This document shows, piece by piece, positions 1 through 8,809 of a stretch of 64,000 bases of DNA. The translations under genes and the position numbers were made by a program. Source of the DNA: Escherichia phage SP15; sequence record AP019559; one strand, given 5' to 3'. Each line of letters begins with the position of its first letter. Within the stretch, counting starts at the first letter, position 1. The notes beneath the pieces are model-generated. The model worked only from the letters and a program-made list of their open reading frames with translations. It did not search any database and was not told where the DNA came from.

Positions 1-64
1 AGGAATCGAACCTACCTCTTTCTAGCTTATGAGACTAGCGATCTCTACCAGAGATCTAACCCGC
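1..64 (-). tRNA. partial tRNA, anticodon CAU (Met or Ile-lysidine type); 3' acceptor strand cut by window edge
   Basis: Reverse complement gives GCGGGUU acceptor 5' strand, anticodon stem CUAGU/GCUAG with loop CUCAUAA, T-loop UUCGAUU; truncated at position 1. Confidence 0.5.
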
Positions 65-71
65 AATTGTT

Positions 72-147
72 TGGTCAGTGCGGCAGGACTCGAACCTGCG
101 ACCCGAAGCATCCAAGGCTCCCACGCTACCAACTGCGCTACGCACTG
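72..147 (-). tRNA. tRNA-Pro (anticodon UGG)
   Basis: 7-bp acceptor CAGUGCG/CGCACUG, D-stem GCGC/GCGU, anticodon stem GGAGC/GCUUC, loop CUUGGAU, T-arm GCAGG-UUCGAGU-CCUGC, encoded CCA. Confidence 0.7.
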
Positions 148-156
148 TTAATTCTT

Positions 157-354
157 TTATTGTGGGGGGATATTAATAATTCGTCCATCTACACAATAAA
201 CGGTACTAGGGATTGTACTGTATATGTAGAAATTCTTTATATTACTCTCTCCGCCACAGAAATTTTTAGCAAATTCATACTCTTTATTAATGGTTGAGTC
301 AAGTTTAAAACAACCAGTAAGTAGGAATACAGATAGCAATAAAACTTTCTTCAT
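157..354 (-). CDS. small putative lipoprotein (signal peptide with lipobox LLTGC)
   Basis: 65-aa ORF, N-terminal MKKVLLLSVFLLTGC, 3 further Cys in mature part; upstream TATAAT and AGAGAAGGAAA RBS on minus strand. Confidence 0.5.
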   Translation of the reverse strand: MKKVLLLSVFLLTGCFKLDSTINKEYEFAKNFCGGESNIKNFYIYSTIPSTVYCVDGRIINIPPQ

Positions 355-564
355 TTTGCTTTCCTTCTCTTCACTTTATAAAATATATTATACAGAGAAT
401 TAAGTAAAATAGCAAATGAATTTTTAATAAATTTACTTATTGTGTAGGCCACCTGGAGGCTATGAACCCCACGGCTGACAAAGAAGTTTGCGAGACTTCT
501 CTTAAAAGCCAGAATAGACCCGCCGATCTATCGGAACCTACATAATAAGTAAACTTTATAGTGT

Positions 565-685
565 CATTCTAGACAGGACTCGAACCTGTTATCACTTGTG
601 CGGACTTACGAGAACCATTCTTTCACTCGAATCGAACGAGCTTCTGCCCTAGCCAAGCTGGTTTCCCCATCAACCACGCTAGAAT
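565..685 (-). ncRNA. atypical tRNA-like RNA, about 121 nt, with two T-arm-like hairpins
   Basis: Perfect 7-bp terminal helix AUUCUAG/CUAGAAU, 3' T-arm ACAGG-UUCGAGU-CCUGU, internal hairpin GCUCG-UUCGAUU-CGAGU; too long for a canonical tRNA, no clean anticodon arm, no encoded CCA. Confidence 0.35.
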
Positions 686-807
686 GTTTGATTGTTTTCA
701 GTGCAAGAGTCCGAGTCTTGGACACGACCGCTTCGCAAGTACATAGGCAGCTTATCATGAGTCAGCACTTCCGAATTGCTAGCCCCGTGTTCTGCACTGA
801 AATTTTA

Positions 808-1155
808 TTAGTTTAACCGTAAAGTATTATCTACTTCACCATTAATTGTTCGGCATTCCTCTGGGATTGCTGGTGTAGCCTTGTATTCCCACCACTCAGC
901 ACCATCATATTCCCCACGTTCTAGCCAAGTTCCATCGGCAAACCATACATTACCATAAAGTAATTGTCCACCGTATCCAGAATCATATTCAAAGTCTAGG
1001 TTATTAAGAAACCCCTCAATGTCTTCTTCTGTATAACCTAAAGGTAATACCCAGACTTTTTTGTCCCCATAATACCCAAATTCTATTTTAATACACTTAA
1101 CTTTAGAATTGGTATTTTTTAAGGCGAGTAACAGCTCTTCTTTAGCATTACGCAT
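808..1155 (-). CDS. hypothetical protein
   Basis: 115-aa ORF between tRNA genes. Confidence 0.5.
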   Translation of the reverse strand: MRNAKEELLLALKNTNSKVKCIKIEFGYYGDKKVWVLPLGYTEEDIEGFLNNLDFEYDSGYGGQLLYGNVWFADGTWLERGEYDGAEWWEYKATPAIPEECRTINGEVDNTLRLN

Positions 1156-1180
1156 AGTATATTCTCATACTGAATTAAGT

Positions 1181-1257
1181 TGGCGCGACCGATGGGATTT
1201 GAACCCACATTCTCTCCCGTGACAGGGGAGTACCATTACCAAGCCAGCCCCGGTCGC
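1181..1257 (-). tRNA. tRNA-Asp (anticodon GUC)
   Basis: Acceptor GCGACCG/CGGUCGC, anticodon stem CUCCC/GGGAG, loop CUGUCAC, T-loop UUCAAAU, encoded CCA. Confidence 0.7.
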
Positions 1258-1266
1258 ATAATTCAT

Positions 1267-1452
1267 TTACTCAGCTTTGAGTTTTTCAATAGCTGCATTA
1301 AGTTCTTTAAGAAACTCTTTTCGTACATTAAGACGATTGAGACTTACTAGTATATCGTGTTTAAGTTCTTCGATGTATTTCTTTTCAACTTCAATATTGT
1401 TGATAGTGCTATCACGATGAACTTCTAGCTGCGCAATTACATTCTTGGACAT
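1267..1452 (-). CDS. hypothetical protein (coiled-coil-like)
   Basis: 61-aa ORF with GAGGAAAC RBS. Confidence 0.4.
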   Translation of the reverse strand: MSKNVIAQLEVHRDSTINNIEVEKKYIEELKHDILVSLNRLNVRKEFLKELNAAIEKLKAE

Positions 1453-1554
1453 GCTTGTTTCCTCAGTTATTAATGAAAATGGTATCTGTGGCTGAATTCG
1501 ATGTCAGCAATGATAGCTGGTTGGCTACCGGTTTACTTAACTCTACACAGAATT

Positions 1555-1637
1555 TGGCGGGCCGTGTAGGATTCGAACCTACGTTGTCTTTCGACATGGA
1601 TTAACAGTCCACCGCCAAACCGCTTGGCTAACGACCC
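1555..1637 (-). tRNA. tRNA-Asn (anticodon GUU) with unusually long 13-nt variable region
   Basis: Acceptor GGGUCGU/ACGGCCC (one G-U), D-stem GCCA/UGGC, anticodon stem GUGGA/UCCAU, loop CUGUUAA, variable GUCGAAAGACAAC, T-arm GUAGG-UUCGAAU-CCUAC, CCA. Confidence 0.6.
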
Positions 1638-1789
1638 TAAATTTATATTGCTGACTAGGATTTTCACCTAGACGGAGTTAGCACCGTAGCGTGTAGCGGC
1701 ATACCTCTCCAAACCGTGCCTCATCTTTCAATTACGGAGACAGTGTTCCTACGCGTGCCTGAATTGATTCAACAATTCTTCCAGCAAAT

Positions 1790-1865
1790 TGGACGACCGC
1801 ATGAGATTTGAACTCACATAAAAAGGATTTGCAATCCTTCGCCTAAGCCCTTCAGCCAACGGTCG
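1790..1865 (-). tRNA. tRNA-Cys (anticodon GCA)
   Basis: Acceptor CGACCGU/GCGGUCG, anticodon stem AAGGA/UCCUU, loop UUGCAAA, T-arm GUGAG-UUCAAAU-CUCAU, CCA. Confidence 0.65.
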
Positions 1866-1934
1866 GTTTATCTTGTTCTGTCATGTTGCTTCTCCAGTTC
1901 AATTTATGTAATTATTATACAGAACTTTTGGAAA

Positions 1935-2207
1935 CTAAGCAACTACATTTTTTAAGAATTTGATGCCTTTCTTTTTCTTCTTATATTTCCACGTTAATGG
2001 ATTCTGTCGATTATGAACGCTTGAGATCTTTGTCTCGTCAAAGTTCTTCAATATCATGTAATCACAGGATAATTGTTCTAGTAGAATGTGATCACCGTCA
2101 AAAGCGTATACATAAGGCTGTTGACTAACACGATAATGATAGACTTTGTTAATTCTACGTTTCAGCGACTTATCAGCGCAGTAAATAAAGAAGTTTTCAG
2201 GATGCAT
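1935..2207 (-). CDS. hypothetical protein
   Basis: ORF track 1935..2222 begins at TTG; internal ATG at 2207 follows AAGGAG with 6-nt spacing. Confidence 0.45.
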   Translation of the reverse strand: MHPENFFIYCADKSLKRRINKVYHYRVSQQPYVYAFDGDHILLEQLSCDYMILKNFDETKISSVHNRQNPLTWKYKKKKKGIKFLKNVVA

Positions 2208-2224
2208 CAGCAGCTCCTTCAATT

Positions 2225-2299
2225 TGGTGCACCCTGTTCGTATCGAACGAACCTCTCAAGCTCTTCAGGCAAGCGCTAATCCATCTCAGCTAAAGGTGC
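2225..2299 (-). tRNA. tRNA-like element, possible pseudo-tRNA (anticodon arm does not fold)
   Basis: Good 7-bp acceptor GCACCUU/AGGGUGC, T-arm GUUCG-UUCGAUA-CGAAC and CCA, D-stem GCUG/UAGC, but no 5-bp anticodon stem found. Confidence 0.35.
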
Positions 2300-2305
2300 A
2301 AATTT

Positions 2306-2382
2306 TGGCAAACCTACTAGGACTCGAACCTAGACCGTACGGTTTTGGAGACCGACATGCTGTCCAGTAACACTCTAGGAAT
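2306..2382 (-). tRNA. tRNA-Trp candidate (anticodon CCA), acceptor stem with two U-U mismatches
   Basis: Anticodon stem UCGGU/ACCGU, loop CUCCAAA, T-arm CUAGG-UUCGAGU-CCUAG, CCA; acceptor AUUCCUA/UAGGUUU imperfect. Confidence 0.5.
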
Positions 2383-2390
2383 GCAGAAAT

Positions 2391-2467
2391 TGGCGTCCTG
2401 TGCGGGGATCGAACCCGCAAATCCTACCTTGAAAGGGTAGTGACTTTACCAGTTTGTCTAACAGGAC
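2391..2467 (-). tRNA. tRNA-Glu (anticodon UUC)
   Basis: Acceptor GUCCUGU/ACAGGAC, anticodon stem CUACC/GGUAG, loop CUUUCAA, T-arm GCGGG-UUCGAUC-CCCGC, CCA. Confidence 0.7.
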
Positions 2468-2474
2468 TTAAATT

Positions 2475-2565
2475 TGGTGTTGGATGATGGAGTCGAACCA
2501 CCCGAGACCCTTCCGAGTCGGCAGATTTACAGTCTGCTTCGCTACCTCTACGATACTAATCCAAC
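2475..2565 (-). tRNA. tRNA-Tyr (anticodon GUA), type II with long variable arm
   Basis: Acceptor GUUGGAU/AUCCAAC, anticodon stem GCAGA/UCUGC, loop CUGUAAA, long variable arm, T-arm GGUGG-UUCGACU-CCAUC, CCA. Confidence 0.7.
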
Positions 2566-2695
2566 ATATTTAGAAGTATTCAAAAATTCTCATTTAAACA
2601 CTTTTAAATATGTTTTCAAATTAGGTAACTATTATACCAAGTTTTAAGGCACTGAGCAAGTCAAATTTTAAAGAACTTGCTCAGTGCTATATTAG

Positions 2696-2971
2696 TTAGT
2701 CGAACTTAGGAGTGACAGTTAAGGAGAACGGAAGTTCGAAAACTTCTTCACCCTCATTACTAACGGTAACTACACGACCTTTAAGTTCAGACATTAAAAT
2801 ATCAATATCAGCTTTTGCATCTGGAGCCATACCAGCTTCAACACATTTAGCTTTAACTTCCGGCAGAAGTTCGACATCGTAGAAATAAAGCCATTCAATC
2901 TCACCTTCCCAGCCTTCCCAGGATTTACAGATTGCACTTTCAATACCAGTTGCTACAACACGATTTTGCAT
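2696..2971 (-). CDS. hypothetical protein
   Basis: 91-aa ORF, GGAG RBS. Confidence 0.5.
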   Translation of the reverse strand: MQNRVVATGIESAICKSWEGWEGEIEWLYFYDVELLPEVKAKCVEAGMAPDAKADIDILMSELKGRVVTVSNEGEEVFELPFSLTVTPKFD

Positions 2972-3061
2972 TCGTTAACTCCTTCATCAATTTATACAAC
3001 TATTATATCAGAAATTTAAAGCAAAAGGCAAGTACATTTTTAAAAATTCTGTTTGGAGGAG

Positions 3062-3268
3062 CTAAACTCCAGATTCTTCAGCTAAGTCTAGGCTAATAAG
3101 AGTTATAGCCATAATTGCTGCACCGTGTTCTTTTTCTCCGGTGTTTTTAGCAGAGTCTATAATAGTCTTAATCTGTTCGTAATAGCCTTTTACTTCTTGT
3201 TCAATACCTGCCTCGGCTATCATGCCTTTAGTCATGATTCGTTGCATAGTAATTTCACGGTTAGCCAT
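3062..3268 (-). CDS. hypothetical protein
   Basis: 68-aa ORF, GGAGA RBS, start overlaps stop of upstream small ORF (TAATG-type coupling). Confidence 0.45.
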   Translation of the reverse strand: MANREITMQRIMTKGMIAEAGIEQEVKGYYEQIKTIIDSAKNTGEKEHGAAIMAITLISLDLAEESGV

Positions 3269-3428
3269 GATGTTTCTCCAGCTTCATTTTTAATAGTTTA
3301 CAAATGAAATCAACGTCTTCATCTGTACCTAGATCTCTATCTTCAAGAGTTGCCTTGAAGTTTTTAGTCAATTCCATGAGGATAACTTCTCTAGAACGAC
3401 GTGTTGGCGGAGGTGGATGTCTATACAT
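3261..3428 (-). CDS. small hypothetical protein (55 aa, Pro-rich N-terminus)
   Basis: Not in ORF track (below 60 aa); AAGGAA RBS 5 nt before ATG; translationally coupled to 3062..3268. Confidence 0.3.
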   Translation of the reverse strand: MYRHPPPPTRRSREVILMELTKNFKATLEDRDLGTDEDVDFICKLLKMKLEKHHG

Positions 3429-3443
3429 CTTATTTCCTTAGTT

Positions 3444-3520
3444 TGGTAGGGGTGGTGGGATTCGAACCCACAAAACCTGAATTTTAAGTCCAGTACCTAT
3501 GCCAATTCGATTACACCCCC
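3444..3520 (-). tRNA. tRNA with anticodon UAA (Leu-type anticodon but short variable loop)
   Basis: Acceptor GGGGGUG/CACCCCU, anticodon stem CUGGA/UUCAG, loop CUUAAAA, T-arm GUGGG-UUCGAAU-CCCAC, CCA; D-stem weak. Confidence 0.55.
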
Positions 3521-3527
3521 GTGTAGT

Positions 3528-3716
3528 TTAGTCAATTACTTTTGAGGCTTCAAGGTAGTCGATATAGTGTATGTTTTCTACCGTAATCATATAATCTGTC
3601 ACTTTATCCATAGCTTGGGCTTCAGAGGTAGCTCTGGCTAACCTATATCCTTTTTTATATTCATCCGGGTATTCTCTATCTTGGATAAACACAACATAAA
3701 CTATATATAGATCCAT
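3528..3716 (-). CDS. hypothetical protein
   Basis: 62-aa ORF. Confidence 0.4.
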   Translation of the reverse strand: MDLYIVYVVFIQDREYPDEYKKGYRLARATSEAQAMDKVTDYMITVENIHYIDYLEASKVID

Positions 3717-3725
3717 TTGTGACCT

Positions 3726-3803
3726 CTATTTAATTTGGTGGCTCCCCGAGGATTCGAACCTACGTACCTTCCGGTTATGAGCCGGGTGCTCATACCATAT
3801 GAG
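3726..3803 (-). tRNA. tRNA with anticodon CAU (Met/Ile type), weak T-stem
   Basis: Acceptor GGUUCUC/GGGAGCC, D-arm GCUC-AUAUGGUAU-GAGC, anticodon loop CUCAUAA, T-loop UUCGAAU but T-stem only 3 clean bp, CCA. Confidence 0.5.
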
Positions 3804-3809
3804 CTTGAG

Positions 3810-3898
3810 AACCAGAATTTGGCGGAAGAAGCGGGAATCGAACCCACAAGGCTATATTTCAAACCGACAGATTAGCAATCTGCTGCAATACCGTTATG
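3810..3898 (-). tRNA. tRNA-Ser (anticodon GCU), type II
   Basis: Acceptor GGAAGAA/UUCUUCC, anticodon stem GCAGA/UCUGU, loop UUGCUAA, long variable arm, T-loop UUCGAUU, CCA. Confidence 0.7.
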
Positions 3899-3929
3899 CT
3901 ATTCTTCCGAATTTATAAGATATATTATA

Positions 3930-4448
3930 TTAGAAATTTAGCTTCATAGCAAGAAAATTTTTCAAGTTTTCGGTAGACATCTCATCCACATCTACGGGAG
4001 AAACAAAGCCGTTTAATTTTCTAGCAAATTTTTCACCCGCAGGATCATTATCTCCGACAGCTACCAATTTAAAAGGTAGTAATTTCAGTTGCTTTAATAA
4101 CGCTTTTCCTGGAGAAGAACCCAACATTGCTAGGGCTGGATAACCAGCATTATGTAACGCAACTGCCTTAAATACAGATTCAGCAATCAATACTACTTTT
4201 TCATCTCCATTGAGAGTTTCTAGTCCCCATACACACTGGGTAGTAGAATAAGTAAAGTATTTAGCTTCAAAGGGGCACTTACCATGACCTTTTGGAGCAG
4301 AAGGATTATAAGTTTGATAGCCCCTCAACATCCCAGAGAAGTCATACAACGGGACTGTTAGCCATCCTTCCGGACTTAACCAGCAATGATATTTATCTGT
4401 ATCAAATCCTCTAGATAAGAGGTGCTGTGTTAGCTCATCAACATTCAT
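3930..4448 (-). CDS. stand-alone Toprim-domain protein (DnaG-like catalytic core)
   Basis: Motifs VVLIAESVFKAVALHNAGYPALAMLG and VAVGDNDPAGEKFARKL resemble the DnaG Toprim E...DxD core; start moved to ATG at 4448 (AGAGGA RBS), track extension reads through the promoter. Confidence 0.5.
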   Translation of the reverse strand: MNVDELTQHLLSRGFDTDKYHCWLSPEGWLTVPLYDFSGMLRGYQTYNPSAPKGHGKCPFEAKYFTYSTTQCVWGLETLNGDEKVVLIAESVFKAVALHNAGYPALAMLGSSPGKALLKQLKLLPFKLVAVGDNDPAGEKFARKLNGFVSPVDVDEMSTENLKNFLAMKLNF

Positions 4449-4623
4449 ATTTGGTTCCTCTTTCAAATTTATAGATATATTATACAGAGAATTTAGCATT
4501 CAAGCAATCAAATTTTTTAACTTTTTAGAGGAAAATCATAGGGCACTTAAGGATAGCAGATAAGTGGTGAGGACCAAAATTTGTGACCCCACTAAAAATT
4601 CAGGGGCAATTTTTAAAGACCCC

Positions 4624-4653
4624 TTGACATTTTCGCTGGGGTAGTGTAAAGTA
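4624..4653 (+). promoter_or_regulatory. sigma70-type promoter for the low-complexity cassette
   Basis: TTGACA (4624-4629), 17-nt spacer, TAAAGT; about 60 nt upstream of ATG 4714. Confidence 0.5.
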
Positions 4654-4713
4654 TATGTTATGGATGAGTGATCAAAGAGACACACATTTTCTATATACTA
4701 GGAGGTGTCAAAA

Positions 4714-5697
4714 ATGACAGAAGAAGTAGCTAAGAGTCCTGAGACCGTCGCTAGCGTTGCAGCAGAACTGCACCGTCACGAGGAATCAGATAAGAAAAAG
4801 TGGGAGAAGGTCAGAGCCTACGAAGAAAAACATCGTGAACACGATGATGAAGAAGATGACGATGAACATTGTCATAAATATGGAAAACATAAAATGCAAG
4901 AACCAGTAAACGTATTTACTAGTGGCTTCCCTGGCCTACTGGGTGGTTACCCAGCAAACGCAGGTGCTTTCGGTGGTGAAGGTATGGGACTATTCGGAGC
5001 TATCCTAATCGGTGCTCTATTAACAGGCGGATTCGGTGGTTTCGGTGGATTCGGTGGACGTGGTGTAGTTGGTGATGGTACCGCAGTTGATGCAGTACTT
5101 CAGAACCAAGATACCGCTAGTATTCTAGCAGCTATTAACACTACTCGTACAGAAGCTAACCAGGGTACTGGAGCTGTTTTAAGCGCAGTTAACAATGGGT
5201 TTAGCCAGACATCCCAAAACCAGAGCCGTGATACTCAGTCTGTACTAACTACGATCTATGGTACAGGTGCTAATCTGTCTAATCAGATCTGTCAGGAAAC
5301 TCGCAACGTTATTCAGGGTCAGTTCGATCTTTCTCGCCAGATTGATCAATCTTTCGCAGCTAATCAGATAGCTCGTGCACAAGATAAGTTTGATTCTGCA
5401 CAGATCGCTTTCCAGCAGACTTTACAAACTAATAACCAGTTTGCCGCTGTTCAGGCTCAGATGTGTGCTAACCAGAACTCTCTGGAACGTCAGATCGCTG
5501 AATGTTGCTGTGAACTTCAGACTGCTATCGCTGGTGTAACTACTGCTCGTATTCAGGATGAGTTAGATGCATGTCGCCTACGTGAAGCAATCGCTGCGGG
5601 TAACGGTGCTAACGGTCAGGTAATTAATCAAATCGCTGTAAGTCTTGGTGCTATCACTCAGACTCTGGCTGGTCTGCAGGCTAAACTGCCGGCTTAA
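4714..5697 (+). CDS. low-complexity membrane protein: His/acidic N-terminus, Gly-zipper TM segment, Q/N/S/T-rich C-terminal domain with CCC motif
   Basis: AGGAGG RBS 9 nt before ATG 4714; TM GLFGAILIGALLTGGFGGFGGFGG; codon usage rich in CGT/GGT/GCT/CTG. Confidence 0.6.
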   Translation: MTEEVAKSPETVASVAAELHRHEESDKKKWEKVRAYEEKHREHDDEEDDDEHCHKYGKHKMQEPVNVFTSGFPGLLGGYPANAGAFGGEGMGLFGAILIGALLTGGFGGFGGFGGRGVVGDGTAVDAVLQNQDTASILAAINTTRTEANQGTGAVLSAVNNGFSQTSQNQSRDTQSVLTTIYGTGANLSNQICQETRNVIQGQFDLSRQIDQSFAANQIARAQDKFDSAQIAFQQTLQTNNQFAAVQAQMCANQNSLERQIAECCCELQTAIAGVTTARIQDELDACRLREAIAAGNGANGQVINQIAVSLGAITQTLAGLQAKLPA

Positions 5698-5718
5698 TAT
5701 TAAGGGGAGGAGCCCATT

Positions 5719-6135
5719 ATGAGTAAATATGGTTTTGTAAATAACGGACTTAATCAAAGTATGGGCTCCCAGCAGCCCATTCCGGGTCTGGATAACCCCT
5801 ACTTACAACAATTGCAACAGCGTTTAGCAGAAGCGCAACAGATGCAACAACAACTCCAGCAAAACCCTGGAAGTGTGAGTCCTATGCAAATGATGCAGCA
5901 AATGAGCGGGCAGTCGCAAATGCCTCAACAAATGCAGCAACAGATGCCGCAGCAGCAAGTTCAGCAGCAAACCCAACAACCGCAGGTTTCTGCGGAAGGA
6001 CAGGCAGTACTAGCCCTTTTCGAAGACTTCACAAAGACAGAGGATGGGAAGCAGCTTGTATCACTTATGGGTAAGTTTAATAGCTTCTGCCAAAGCCAAG
6101 TTGCAAAAGCTCAAAATGGTGGTAATAACTCCTAA
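5719..6135 (+). CDS. Q-rich protein
   Basis: 138-aa ORF, RBS AGGGGAGGAG, about 30 percent Gln in central region. Confidence 0.55.
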   Translation: MSKYGFVNNGLNQSMGSQQPIPGLDNPYLQQLQQRLAEAQQMQQQLQQNPGSVSPMQMMQQMSGQSQMPQQMQQQMPQQQVQQQTQQPQVSAEGQAVLALFEDFTKTEDGKQLVSLMGKFNSFCQSQVAKAQNGGNNS

Positions 6136-6144
6136 GGAGAAATT

Positions 6145-6339
6145 ATGTGTTGCAGAAAACCTGTTTCGTGCTGCCCAATGCCTGTAGCACGTTGTTGCTC
6201 TCCAGCAATGTTTACACAAATACCGGCGTTCAATCCCTTTGCCTTTAAGCCTACTCTTATCCTGCCCCCTAGAGTAGATTTTCAGTCAAGATTGGCCTCC
6301 CGTATGGGTGGTTGCTGTACACCGAGAGTGTGGTTCTGA
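6145..6339 (+). CDS. Cys-rich small protein (paired CC motifs)
   Basis: 64-aa ORF, RBS TAAGGAGA, four CC pairs; followed by hairpin terminator. Confidence 0.5.
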   Translation: MCCRKPVSCCPMPVARCCSPAMFTQIPAFNPFAFKPTLILPPRVDFQSRLASRMGGCCTPRVWF

Positions 6340-6354
6340 AGAACCAAACAATAA

Positions 6355-6386
6355 AGCCCCTAGTCGAAAGACTTAGGGGCTTTTCT
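6355..6386 (+). terminator. rho-independent terminator after the low-complexity cassette
   Basis: Hairpin AGCCCCTAG...CTAGGGGCT followed by TTTTCTG. Confidence 0.65.
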
Positions 6387-6399
6387 GTATTTAAGATAA

Positions 6400-6436
6400 A
6401 AGAAAAGCCCTGCGCTCTCCAGGGAACGCAGGGCTT
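6400..6436 (-). terminator. rho-independent terminator after SPFH gene
   Basis: Hairpin GCCCTGCG...CGCAGGGC with U-run on minus strand. Confidence 0.6.
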
Positions 6437-6459
6437 ACTTCAGATGTTACATGCGGATA

Positions 6460-7407
6460 TTATTTATTACGCATATCCATGATCATTTGACCATCGTAGC
6501 CAGTACCTACCACAGTCTGTGGTACACCACCTTGATATTTCTGAGCACGAATCATTTCGACTTCCAGTTGTTTCCAACGAATCATCTCAGGAGTAATGGT
6601 ACGTTGCAGTGCGGCGTTAGCTTCAGCTTCTTTCTTAGCTGCGTACAGTTTAGCATCTGCGTCACGTTCATTAGCGATAGCTTGGTTGTTGCGAGCTTCA
6701 CGATCTGCTTCTGCTTGTTTAACTTTTTGCTGTGCTTCCTGTTCAACACGAGCTAATTCAGCTTTAGCAGCATTAACCTGTTCTTCACGAACTTTGGTAT
6801 TCTGTACCTGTTCCATGATTACCGGTGGCAAAGTAATATCCTGAAGGAATACCTGCTTAACTGTGTAACCATATGGGCGTGCATACTCTTCAACTTCCTG
6901 TTGAATTGCAGTTTGCAATTGAGCCTGAATTTTAGCATCAAACAAATCTTGTGCTTTAGGTACAGACTTACCAAACTCACGAATAGTAGACAGTAATTTT
7001 TCAGTTACATATTTGTCTAACGCTTGATCCTGAGTACCTGCGTTAATACGGTTAATTGGTGCCTTAGAACCATCAAACTGCAACATAACAGTCAGGTCAA
7101 CAGTGGATTTAAACTTATCCTGGCTAGGAACCTGAAGTTTATCTAATTTTACAGCAATATCTTTTGTACTAAAAGTGTCGAAAGATGCAAATGGGTTTAC
7201 AAGATGGAAACCTGGTAATACTGGGTTAGGATCTACTTTACCCAGAAATGTTTGGGTTTTAACCGTACCATCAGAAACAATAGTATATGAATTAAAGGCT
7301 AGAATCAAGCCTGCTAAACCAACTACAGCACCAATACCCCAACGTTTAATAGTACGAATTACTTTCTGCTCAGAAGTCAGTTCTTTCATATTTTTAGTAT
7401 TAAACAT
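6460..7407 (-). CDS. SPFH/band-7 (prohibitin/HflC-like) membrane protein
   Basis: N-terminal TM helix IGAVVGLAGLILAF, then band-7-like domain and Ala/Glu/Gln-rich coiled-coil typical of the SPFH family. Confidence 0.6.
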   Translation of the reverse strand: MFNTKNMKELTSEQKVIRTIKRWGIGAVVGLAGLILAFNSYTIVSDGTVKTQTFLGKVDPNPVLPGFHLVNPFASFDTFSTKDIAVKLDKLQVPSQDKFKSTVDLTVMLQFDGSKAPINRINAGTQDQALDKYVTEKLLSTIREFGKSVPKAQDLFDAKIQAQLQTAIQQEVEEYARPYGYTVKQVFLQDITLPPVIMEQVQNTKVREEQVNAAKAELARVEQEAQQKVKQAEADREARNNQAIANERDADAKLYAAKKEAEANAALQRTITPEMIRWKQLEVEMIRAQKYQGGVPQTVVGTGYDGQMIMDMRNK

Positions 7408-7440
7408 ATATTTCCTTTGTTTTAGTTACAGTTAATAAAA

Positions 7441-7515
7441 TTGGCCGAGGTGACAGGATTCGAACCTGCATAAAGGAATTTAGAAGACTCCTGCCTCTCC
7501 CTTAGACTACACCCC
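7441..7515 (-). tRNA. tRNA-Arg (anticodon UCU)
   Basis: Acceptor CGGGGUG/CACCUCG, anticodon stem GGAGU/AUUCC, loop CUUCUAA, T-arm GCAGG-UUCGAAU-CCUGU, CCA. Confidence 0.7.
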
Positions 7516-8029
7516 GTTTAAATATTTTTAAGAACTCTCGTAAAAACTCTTAAAAATACAGACGATACCGGGAGAGTCATAAGTCTCACTCATTAAGTAT
7601 TTCAAGACAAAATACAGTAACGTCTATTATTTTCCAGTTTAAGTCAGGGTGACTTAGTGGTTAGGTCCTGCGGTATATTGAGGACTCGGTTAGGCTTGGG
7701 GTCATGACTTCCCGCCTTTTGCTGCTACTCAACAGGAGTTATCGCGAATTACCTGTGCTATTGTGCACCATTAGTGACATCTCTCATGTCAGCATTTCCC
7801 ACTTTGTGGATAGCTTGAAAAACTACTCCGATATGGAGAAAAAACTTCACTATCCTAGAATACCTTCTAAAGTTCTTCTTTAGCCTGGACATAGTTAAAT
7901 CGTAATAAAACTATTCAGCAGACTGGTTGGTTAGCCTGGAACCAACTACCGCGTGGTTTAGGCAGTGCGCAACTAACCTCGGAAGCTTTTACGTTAAAAG
8001 CATCAGTTATCCAGTTCTTACCGACCGTA

Positions 8030-8100
8030 GGATTCGAACCTATATCTTCCACCAGTTACGGCTTGATAATACCAATTATACTAGGACGGCAGTGTTACTA
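8030..8100 (-). ncRNA. tRNA-like small RNA (acceptor and T-arm present, D and anticodon arms not canonical)
   Basis: Terminal helix GCCGUCC/GGUCGGU (one mismatch), T-arm AUAGG-UUCGAAU-CCUAC, no encoded CCA, about 71 nt. Confidence 0.35.
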
Positions 8101-8365
8101 CATAAGTGATTTCCACACCCCACTATTTATAAATTAGAGAAGAGTTTAGGGGAGAGGTTTCAGACGCCTCATTTTACACGTTCTAGCCACTAACCGGGAT
8201 TGCCGCCCCCTGTGTACTAGTTTTACAACTAACCTACCGACTCTATTCAACGAATCTTAGTGCTCGACGCATCTTACATTAAGACAAGTTCAGCGTAATC
8301 GGCTCGCTGTTCTCTAATTTATGAATATATTATACAGAATTTATAAGCATTTAGCAAATAAATTT

Positions 8366-8809
8366 TTAATTAAATTCACCAGCAATCTGAGCAGCAGTAC
8401 CACCATCATAACGCCCAGGAAATTCTTCCTTAATCGCTTTCATCAGCATACCTTTTGTAATTCCAGGGTTTAGCTTAACTAATTCTGCAAAGTATTTACG
8501 AATCTCAGTATCAGATAACTGAGGGGGCAGATACTCCTGCAACCACTTATTTAGAATGTACTCATACTGAGCGGACTGCAAGCTATAACTATCAAGATCT
8601 TGACCATGAAGTTTAGCTTTCATCTGGTTAATGCTTTTTAGTTGAGCTTTGAGATAAGACACAAATTGTTCAGAAGTGATGAAATCTTTATTAATACGCT
8701 GAAGATCCCCGATTATGGTCTGATAGCTTTTAGCGACTTCTTTATCAGAACCATTAAACTTAGAATCCTGCAAAGCTCTACGCAAAACATCTAAAATATT
8801 CTCTTCCAT
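8366..8809 (-). CDS. GatB/YqeY-domain protein
   Basis: C-terminal ITKGMLMKAIKEEFPGRYDGGTAAQIAGEF matches the YqeY family signature. Confidence 0.6.
   Translation of the reverse strand: MEENILDVLRRALQDSKFNGSDKEVAKSYQTIIGDLQRINKDFITSEQFVSYLKAQLKSINQMKAKLHGQDLDSYSLQSAQYEYILNKWLQEYLPPQLSDTEIRKYFAELVKLNPGITKGMLMKAIKEEFPGRYDGGTAAQIAGEFN

Follow-up and report, generated by a model that had tools for sequence, protein, structure and literature searches.

How should one read phage transfer RNA (tRNA) genes that depart from the canonical cloverleaf, each in a different way: as relics that have begun to decay, or as working molecules of unusual design? The question is raised by a stretch of 64,000 nucleotides (nt) from Escherichia phage SP15 (sequence record AP019559), referred to below, at its full length, as the window. 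An initial annotation, made from the sequence, had described several of its tRNA genes as non-canonical, namely a tRNA-Asn, a tRNA-Trp, a tRNA with anticodon UAA, an element with no foldable anticodon arm (a tRNA-Phe, as explained below) and a tRNA with anticodon CAU, and had suggested that some of them may be pseudogenes or have a non-standard identity. The unusual features are confirmed, although the CAU gene had been placed at shifted coordinates and the anticodon arm of tRNA-Phe is present, not absent. The pseudogene suggestion fares badly, given that the unusual features are kept among relatives, the other stems covary, GenBank notes record suppressor activity and the sequences are identical to those of curated genes. 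All five are genuine tRNAs that had been catalogued before, and they almost certainly function; we put at about 80% the probability that they are working phage tRNAs of the T5-type cluster whose non-canonical features are maintained architectures and not decay.

Five irregular tRNAs in a conserved gene region

Positions 1-8200 of the window are 99.3% identical over 8200 nt to Escherichia phage vB_EcoS_FFH_1 (FFH1), a Tequintavirus infecting E. coli O157:H7, and are matched by 611 phage records. This is the classic, long-studied tRNA gene region of T5, BF23 and phage 5. The curated record of Salmonella phage 5 (AJ604531) gives, in the same order as the window, Asn (83 nt), Cys, Phe, Trp, Glu, Tyr, Leu2(UAA), Ile2(CAU) and Ser3, and the Asn, Phe, Trp, Leu and CAU genes of the window are each 100% identical to their phage 5 counterparts. 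ARAGORN finds 11 tRNA genes between 72 and 7516, every one on the minus strand. The Rfam tRNA model (RF00005, whose gathering score of 29 bits we used as the membership cut-off) recovers the same 11 and adds the CAU-anticodon tRNA at 3739-3813, for which the ARAGORN run on the window gave no call, and a truncated tRNA at 1-65. All five odd tRNAs score above 29 bits (Table 1), with E-values of 8e-5 to 5e-11, so that none of them is a chance match. In every one the anticodon loop has 7 nt and U33, CCA is encoded, and the overall layout and loops are those of a tRNA.

The initial annotation had allowed that prediction tools might return canonical structures, in which case its folds would have been misparsed. 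The tools do call tRNAs here, but the irregular pairs (2:71 and 3:70 in tRNA-Trp, 28:42 and 29:41 in tRNA-Phe, the T-stem bulge of the CAU tRNA) persist in the Rfam alignments themselves, so that the departures are not artefacts of the first parse.

In a pseudogene one would expect free substitution, broken helices and no conservation, whereas the helices of these genes are kept by compensatory changes. Although this region of the window is only about 83% identical to that of Epseptimavirus, the Asn, Phe, Trp and Leu genes are identical or one base apart. GenBank notes describe the Asn, Trp, Tyr and Leu2 tRNAs of phage 5 as amber suppressors once they bear a CUA anticodon (Leu2 being called "effective"), and likewise the CUA version of the T5 Ile2 allele, which is one compensatory pair away from the CAU tRNA of the window. 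From sequence comparison and these records it is very probable that all five function in translation.

A recurrent class of viral tRNA-Trp

The acceptor stem of tRNA-Trp reads A1-U72, U2·U71, U3·U70, C4-G69, C5-G68, U6-A67, A7-U66, with G73, and the two U-U mismatches first noticed in this candidate (2380-2381 opposite 2311-2312) are found both in our parse and in the Rfam alignment. The tRNA also has G8/U14 instead of U8/A14 and a U·U at 27:43. The CCA anticodon, G73 and A1-U72, all elements for TrpRS, are present; G2-C71 and G3-C70, both of them strong determinants in B. subtilis (identity set from PMC9976931), are not, and are the only known identity elements missing among the Asn, Leu, Phe and Trp tRNAs. 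The tRNA-Trp genes of Tequintavirus, Epseptimavirus, Sugarlandvirus and an Enterobacter phage all keep U2·U71 and U/C3·U70. Positions 4-7 covary among them (CCUA/UAGG, CCCC/GGGG, UCCC/GGGA, GACC/GGUC), and the T stem covaries too. An alternative 5' end, in which leader bases would pair with G73/C74, was rejected, as the upstream bases are not conserved among carriers.

Is this design confined to T5-like phages? A scan with the T loop and U70U71U72G73CCA, leaving the 5' half free, returned mostly tRNA-Trp, including at least 12 non-T5 contigs with a 5' A-Y-Y (Y, pyrimidine) opposite UUU. For an unbiased comparison a single pattern of anticodon loop and T loop was run on IMG/VR and on the GTDB genome set. 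Among the matches listed, mismatches exactly at 2:71 and 3:70 occur in at least 8 of 113 distinct viral and in none of 105 distinct cellular tRNA-Trp (Fisher's exact p=0.007), both samples being arbitrary and not phylogenetically balanced; since two further viral cases were mis-parsed, eight is a lower bound. The cellular sequences listed have G2-C71/G3-C70 in 68 cases and C2-G71/G3-C70 in 21 of the 105, while G2-C71/G3-C70 is seen in only 16 of the 113 viral ones. In viruses, then, tRNA-Trp generally diverges at the top of its acceptor stem. With two parsing errors set aside, no other double-mismatch pattern of the acceptor stem recurred in the sample.

Pooling all scans gave 24 distinct viral tRNA-Trp of the mismatch class. 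Among them 2:71 and 3:70 are never paired (0%), 1:72 and 4-7 always (100%); the D, anticodon and T stems are 96-100% paired, save for an often open 27:43; G73 is found in all, and the mismatches are always UU, UC, CU or CC. They fall into at least 11 clusters at <80% body identity. In several the body is nearly that of a canonical cellular tRNA-Trp and the acceptor stem alone has been rewritten: one body (L082) is 97% identical to the tRNA-Trp of a member of the Xanthobacteraceae but has the acceptor AUCGUGG/CCACUUU where the cellular gene has AGGAGUG/CACUCCU, and another (L059) stands in the same relation to an Oscillospiraceae tRNA-Trp. The existence of distinct clusters, together with host-like bodies whose acceptor has been replaced, points to a repeated, independent origin of the class. 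An origin of the host-like bodies as fragments left at att sites was rejected, as the tRNAs are full-length and both acceptor strands have changed complementarily. A co-encoded enzyme near the mismatch-class genes was also considered and rejected, as an all-against-all blastp of the flanking open reading frames (ORFs) revealed no family shared by carriers beyond close relatives.

Acceptor-stem irregularities with a function are known, such as the C1·A72 mismatch of initiator tRNA and G3·U70 of tRNA-Ala, but a double pyrimidine·pyrimidine mismatch at 2:71 and 3:70 is the described determinant of no enzyme found in our literature search.

Some further variants were seen in passing. One T5-like genome (IMGVR_UViG_2974654585_000001) has a mismatch-class tRNA-Trp with CUA in place of the CCA anticodon which, to judge from that anticodon, is a natural amber-suppressor allele. 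Another CUA tRNA, annotated as 'Pyl', is found in Aeromonas phage TS3 (14915-14989). A G·U at 1:72 occurs in 24 of 121 non-mismatch viral tRNA-Trp and in none of the 105 cellular ones listed.

An arm gained and an arm lost

The variable region of tRNA-Asn, GUCGAAAGACAAC (1583-1595), is indeed, as the initial annotation had it, 13 nt long and contains a mini-hairpin, and the ARAGORN and Rfam parses agree on a GUC/GAC stem with a GAAA loop. Its minimum free energy (MFE) fold (-30.5 kcal/mol) is essentially the cloverleaf (-29.3 kcal/mol), and the AsnRS identity elements, the GUU anticodon and G73 (PMC9976931), are present. A variable region longer than about 10 nt that forms a helix is what defines class II, and by this test the tRNA is class-II-like, with an isotype outside the usual Leu, Ser and Tyr. 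Like the arm of bacterial class II tRNAs, its arm forms a paired hairpin that emerges from positions 44 to 48; it is short, however (3-4 bp plus the GAAA loop), and in cellular life Asn does not count among the class II isotypes.

By blastn the gene leads to tRNA-Asn of 85-86 nt in Pectobacterium phage PM2 (Straboviridae), in Klebsiella phage Roth80 (166 kb) and in a Phapecoctavirus. An IMG/VR scan with a pattern that fixed the 5' side of the arm and the GAAA loop, leaving the 3' side free, gave 28 loci on contigs of 102-175 kb, with 13 distinct sequences. In their alignment 98.1% of pair cells are standard, as against 84.7% in shuffles (none of 500 reaches the observed value), and 14 of 25 pairs have changes on both sides. 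The helix of the extra arm itself is 100% paired, and two of its four pairs covary (C-G to U-A; A-U to C-G). Long arms were also present in 6 of the 53 distinct tRNA-Asn at viral loci that had been chosen for their tRNA-Trp; these six arms are unrelated in sequence to those just described and have GAAA in the loop in five cases and GAAU in the sixth. A class-II-like tRNA-Asn thus recurs among viruses, being present in at least three phage families. An origin from tRNA-Ser or another class II tRNA was considered, but a nearest-neighbour search with the 5' half gave no consistent isotype.

The UAA-anticodon tRNA shows the reverse. Its variable loop, GUUUU (3472-3476), is 5 nt long and ends in U48, and in this it is class-I-like and unlike a canonical tRNA-Leu, just as first described; the long variable arm of class II is missing. 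It nevertheless has a Leu-type D arm with the loop GAAUUGGCAUA, and the whole E. coli LeuRS set is present (A73, A14, the A15-U48 Levitt pair, G18G19 and A20a), a set that does not include the long arm (PMC9976931). At the viral loci chosen for tRNA-Trp, 37 of the 94 distinct tRNA-Leu measure at most 76 nt without CCA, whereas the long arm is kept by 75/75 tRNA-Ser and 35/35 tRNA-Tyr. SerRS reads the extra arm, along with G73 and G1-C72/G2-C71 (PMC9976931), and the asymmetry would be expected if loss of the arm were confined to tRNAs whose synthetase can do without it. Pooled, the short viral tRNA-Leu have the anticodons UAG, UAA or CAA and, in 41 of 49, A73; their D stem is of the 3-bp Leu type with the loop GAAUUGGYAKA, and their variable loop of 5 nt has U as its last base. 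Demerecviridae also have forms of intermediate length (81, 85 and 87 nt). Bacterial tRNA-Leu, unlike that of these phages, is normally long (6/6 in a small cellular sample), but there are precedents for an arm-less form in animal mitochondrial tRNA-Leu(UUR) and in minimal E. coli tRNA-Leu substrates, and the elements kept by the phage form (A73, A15-U48, G18G19, A20a) are sufficient for E. coli LeuRS.

The open-access literature that we searched, which takes in few of the T5 tRNA papers of the 1980s-2000s, contained no description of U2-U71/U3-U70 or other acceptor mismatches in phage tRNA-Trp, of an extra-arm tRNA-Asn or of an arm-less phage tRNA-Leu. The genes themselves are known; it is the recurrence of the three designs across viruses, above all of the 2:71/3:70 class of tRNA-Trp, that appears to be undescribed.

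tRNA-Phe and the CAU tRNA

The element said to lack a foldable anticodon arm is called tRNA-Phe(GAA) by both ARAGORN and Rfam. The arm exists (CUUGC-CUGAAGA-GCUUG, 2257-2273), although it is weakened by two U·U pairs: the stem reads C27-G43, U28·U42, U29·U41, G30-C40, C31-G39, and Rfam flags the same two pairs as non-standard. G34A35A36, A73 and U59 (T loop UUCGAUA), all identity elements, are present; as for U20, a further element of the set, the 8-nt D loop leaves the position ambiguous. We rejected the register of the MFE fold (G26-C40, C27-G39, U28-A38, U29·G37), as it displaces U33 and GAA and the T5 tRNA-Phe is a substrate of PheRS, being charged by the E. coli enzyme according to Kholod et al. 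1997, as cited in PMC9976931. Of the 45 distinct viral tRNA-Phe compared, the double U·U is confined to the four T5-type sequences, so these mismatches are lineage-specific.

For the CAU tRNA the weak T stem is genuine, but the position assigned to the gene (3726-3803) omitted its first 10 nt and took in 10 nt of the trailer. The T stem (3747-3764) has six nt in its 5' strand against five in its 3' strand, in the order C-G, G-C, bulged U (3762), A-U, G-C, G-C. The tRNA also has A8, a C·A at 27:43 and A73. All nine variants keep the one-nt bulge, and compensatory changes are seen at 49:65 (C-G to G-C), at 30:40 (G-C to A-U, in T5) and at 2:71 (G-C to C-G). In tRNA-Ile2, C34 of the CAU anticodon is converted to lysidine by TilS and the tRNA is charged by IleRS. 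The phage 5 gene is curated as tRNAI2, and T5-like genomes hold separate initiator and elongator Met tRNAs; by its curated name the CAU tRNA would thus be tRNA-Ile2, though Ile2 (with lysidine) and Met read alike in DNA.

Possible selective causes

What might maintain such features? The genes of the five tRNAs stand behind mapped early promoters, from which minus-strand transcripts would arise, and with their encoded CCA the tRNAs would be charged by host synthetases, so as to supplement or replace host tRNAs during infection. On this reading tRNA-Asn has gained a short extra arm and tRNA-Leu has lost a long arm which E. coli LeuRS does not need, while tRNA-Trp has two pyrimidine·pyrimidine mismatches, tRNA-Phe two U·U and the CAU tRNA a bulged T stem. 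These deviations, we infer, may have been selected since they would alter surfaces read by tRNA-targeting host factors, candidates being nucleases of the anticodon stem or acceptor stem and acetyltransferases, while recognition by the synthetase is spared. Escape from defence systems or toxins is our leading guess for the main selective cause, held at somewhat less than even odds. The cause may instead be adaptive in another way (charging kinetics, EF-Tu binding or processing), a possibility to which we give less than one chance in two by a clear distance, and near-neutral tolerance is put at about the same level.

The guess has precedents in the same phage group and the same tRNA cluster, from which the nuclease-resistant phage tRNAs of the PARIS, retron-Eco7 and OLD cases come. 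The tRNA-Lys, -Thr and -Asn of T5 neutralise the AriB nuclease of PARIS, which cuts at 40|41; a T5-type tRNA-Tyr rescues infection from retron-Eco7 (PtuAB), and its anticodon is required; and OLD, whose cuts fall after positions 27-29, is resisted by a phage tRNA-Thr. These phage tRNAs depart from the host isoacceptor, in structure or sequence, within stems that such nucleases cut. The U·U pairs of tRNA-Phe at 28:42 and 29:41 fall in the stretch of the stem that is cut by TOPRIM tRNases, as in the AriB and OLD cases. Host tRNA-Asn is a secondary target of AriB, and tRNA-Trp and tRNA-Asn are targets of CdiA-CT. E. coli tRNA-Trp is a prime substrate of CdiA-CT EC869 and of AtaT (from enterohaemorrhagic E. 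coli), both of which read the acceptor stem: the former needs G73 and a weak 1:72 pair, the latter G-C pairs at 4-6:67-69, where the phage tRNA-Trp has C-G, C-G and U-A instead.

Some of the evidence runs against escape. As CdiA-CT prefers a weak or mismatched 1:72, a mismatch need not protect. The AriB-resistant Asn allele of T5 has an altered site as well as a U30·U40 mismatch, whereas tRNA-Asn of the window keeps the E. coli AriB site, U36AAUC|C41, and is therefore no obvious escape variant at the level of sequence. In contrast to the nuclease-resistant tRNAs, no defence system specific for Trp, Phe or Leu is known to be tied to these features.

A bolder version, tentative at best, is that the mismatch class is a virus-specific tRNA-Trp design (A/G1 paired, Y·Y at 2:71 and 3:70, an otherwise normal helix, G73) reached independently by many unrelated phages. 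The driver would then be a widespread host factor that inactivates tRNA-Trp through the G2-C71/G3-C70 top of the stem, and the extra-arm tRNA-Asn and arm-less tRNA-Leu might be parallel changes of shape in which synthetase identity is kept and the defence-facing surface altered.

Alternative explanations

Several observations weigh against the view that these genes encode working tRNAs of maintained design. With energy parameters for unmodified RNA, the cloverleaf of tRNA-Trp is predicted at -9.2 kcal/mol against -16.5 for its MFE fold, and that of tRNA-Phe at -17.2 against -24.6. The anticodon arm of tRNA-Phe is invariant in all Markadamsvirinae sequences examined, so that covariation cannot support it, although conservation does. 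ARAGORN isotype calls rest on the anticodon only, suppressor activity leaves the inserted amino acid unspecified, and the sampling behind the comparison of viral with cellular tRNA-Trp, as stated above, was arbitrary. Bearing this in mind, we considered five alternatives.

The one that survives best, though we think it doubtful, is that the deviations are near-neutral, reflecting relaxed constraint in which mismatches outside identity elements are tolerated. Viral tRNAs do have more anticodon-stem mismatches overall than cellular ones (two or more inner mismatches in 19 of 1499 viral and 0 of 236 cellular tRNAs in the sample), and the scarcity of the cellular G2-C71/G3-C70 among the viral tRNA-Trp listed speaks for this view as well. 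However, drift should scatter, whereas in at least 11 lineages both mismatches stand together at 2:71 and 3:70 and are always Y·Y, positions 4-7 remain fully paired and no other acceptor double mismatch recurs. The extra arm of tRNA-Asn covaries, and the arm is lost by tRNA-Leu only, never by Ser or Tyr.

One may also suppose that at least one of the five has a non-standard amino-acid identity: the extra-arm tRNA-Asn (G73, G1-C72, G2-C71, C11-G24) might also be charged by SerRS, the arm-less UAA tRNA might not be a Leu tRNA, or the CAU tRNA might be a second elongator Met. The long-arm tRNA-Asn suppresses with a CUA anticodon although AsnRS needs GUU, so that it must be charged by some synthetase indifferent to the anticodon, and the short T5 allele does not suppress; the extra arm, G73 and G1-C72/G2-C71 are moreover what SerRS reads. 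Yet the Asn arm, with a stem of 3-4 bp, is far shorter than that of tRNA-Ser (the variable region of the window's tRNA-Ser is about 19-21 nt), and the short tRNA-Leu keep every LeuRS element. The determinants of TilS include C4-G69, and the CAU tRNA has U4-A69, but T5-like genomes are already provided with initiator and elongator Met tRNAs. On balance we regard a changed identity as improbable.

Still less probable is that the five act mainly outside decoding, as decoys or competitive inhibitors of tRNA-targeting host enzymes, like the stable RNAs beside them. The cluster does encode the tRNA-like RNA2 and RNA3, and Belukhina et al. raised competitive inhibition as a possibility for overexpressed viral tRNAs. 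Against this, all five have the intact anticodon loops, encoded CCA and synthetase identity elements of decoding tRNAs; in the OLD study host tRNA was still cleaved and the phage tRNA gave it no protection; and rescue from retron-Eco7 needed the anticodon.

That there are pseudogenes among the five, as initially suggested, or duplicates in decay and no longer in use, is very unlikely. The Rfam scores of the Trp, CAU and Phe tRNAs are low in relation to the cut-off (Table 1), the CAU tRNA was missed by ARAGORN, the predicted cloverleaf stability of tRNA-Trp and tRNA-Phe is weak, and T5 has a tRNA-Gln flagged as a pseudogene as well as non-suppressing Trp and Asn alleles. All this is outweighed by sequences that have stayed identical across Tequintavirus and Epseptimavirus in a diverged region, by helices that are otherwise all kept intact through compensatory changes, by the suppressor activity on record and by the appearance of the same tRNA-Trp motif in at least 11 lineages.

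The weakest alternative, which we consider next to negligible, is templated 5' editing that would repair the tRNA-Trp mismatches after transcription and yield a canonical mature tRNA: the mismatches do lie only within the first three positions, in a layout resembling the 5' tRNA editing of Acanthamoeba and chytrid mitochondria, and the T5-like U70-U71-U72 is invariant while 5' position 3 varies between U and C, but we know of no templated 5' editing enzyme in E. coli or T5, carriers share no gene family beside the tRNA, and some members have C on the 3' strand (CC and UC pairs), which simple A-U repair does not explain.

The surrounding tRNA gene region

The features of the region are collected in Table 1. 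Gene set, order and strand are those of the T5/BF23/phage 5 region (AJ604531, NC_005859; Ksenzenko laboratory), and the promoters and the stable RNAs RNA2, RNA3, RNAIV and RNAX annotated in AJ604531 all map onto the window. T5 (NC_005859) differs in having a 78-nt tRNA-Asn and a 71-nt tRNA-Trp, and in the HNH endonuclease gene hegA, which occupies the place of tRNA-Leu(UAA); the window is also free of a hegB insertion. There is thus allelic mosaicism within the cluster between T5 and the window. Homing endonuclease genes are interspersed in relatives as well.

Table 1. Features of the tRNA gene region of the window.
Feature	Position	Strand	Basis and remarks
tRNA-Pro(UGG)	72-147	-	ARAGORN and Rfam
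stable RNA RNAIV	441-541	-	curated
stable RNA RNA2	562-686	-	curated; tRNA-like
tRNA-Asp(GUC)	1181-1257	-	ARAGORN and Rfam
stable RNA RNA3	1480-1552	-	curated; tRNA-like, ACCA end, 2 nt from tRNA-Asn, 100% identical to phage 5
tRNA-Asn(GUU), 83 nt including CCA	1555-1637	-	ARAGORN, Rfam 59.0 bits, identity to phage 5 tRNAN
tRNA-Cys(GCA)	1790-1865	-	ARAGORN and Rfam
promoter P14b	1888-1962	-	blastn of AJ604531 features onto the window, 100% identity
tRNA-Phe(GAA), 75 nt	2225-2299	-	ARAGORN, Rfam 42.4 bits
tRNA-Trp(CCA), 77 nt	2306-2382	-	ARAGORN, Rfam 36.3 bits
tRNA-Glu(UUC)	2391-2467	-	ARAGORN and Rfam
tRNA-Tyr(GUA), 91 nt, class II	2475-2565	-	ARAGORN and Rfam
promoter P14a	2607-2681		blastn of AJ604531 features, 100% identity
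promoter P15c	2976-3050		blastn of AJ604531 features, 100% identity
tRNA-Leu(UAA), 77 nt	3444-3520	-	ARAGORN, Rfam 57.4 bits
CAU-anticodon tRNA, curated tRNA-Ile2, 78 nt	3736-3813	-	Rfam 40.3 bits at 3739-3813, identity to AJ604531 tRNAI2
tRNA-Ser(GCU), 89 nt, class II	3820-3908	-	ARAGORN and Rfam
promoter P15b	3897-3971		blastn of AJ604531 features, 100% identity
tRNA-Arg(UCU)	7442-7516	-	ARAGORN and Rfam
RNAX stable RNA region	7517-8316	-	curated phage 5 record

RNA2 has acceptor, D and T arms, with about 57 nt in place of the anticodon arm. Inside RNAX, 8019-8090 gives an Rfam tRNA match of 28.3 bits, slightly below the cut-off of 29, and could be a degenerate tRNA embedded in that RNA. All 12 tRNA genes of the window have the CCA encoded and followed by an A/U-rich trailer (AAUU, AUUU or AAAU), which may be a shared 3' processing signal. 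The anticodon of tRNA-Asp is AUC in phage 5 (2403-2479 of its record) and GUC in the window, the rest being identical.

Two ORFs, 3930-4499 (-) and 8366-8809 (-), are embedded among the tRNA genes. A Toprim-like domain (Toprim_2, 24.9 bits) is present in one of them, which in relatives carries the annotation of a DNA primase-related protein; the second has a weak likeness to YqeY (25.4 bits, under the cut-off of 27), and its T5 counterpart is labelled 'tRNA amidotransferase'.

Implications

For the window itself the outcome is mostly one of clarification: its odd tRNAs are catalogued, functional tRNAs of a T5-like phage and not annotation errors or pseudogenes. For annotation in general, it should be noted that ARAGORN missed one of these genes, and that tools keyed to the canonical structure may mis-score or mis-type such tRNAs. 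As to phage biology, phage tRNAs defeat defences that target tRNAs (PARIS, retron-Eco7, OLD and PrrC), and the recurrent deviations, that is the 2:71/3:70 mismatches of tRNA-Trp, the arm gained by tRNA-Asn and the arm lost by tRNA-Leu, would be candidates for the sites at which such defences, or the synthetases, make contact.

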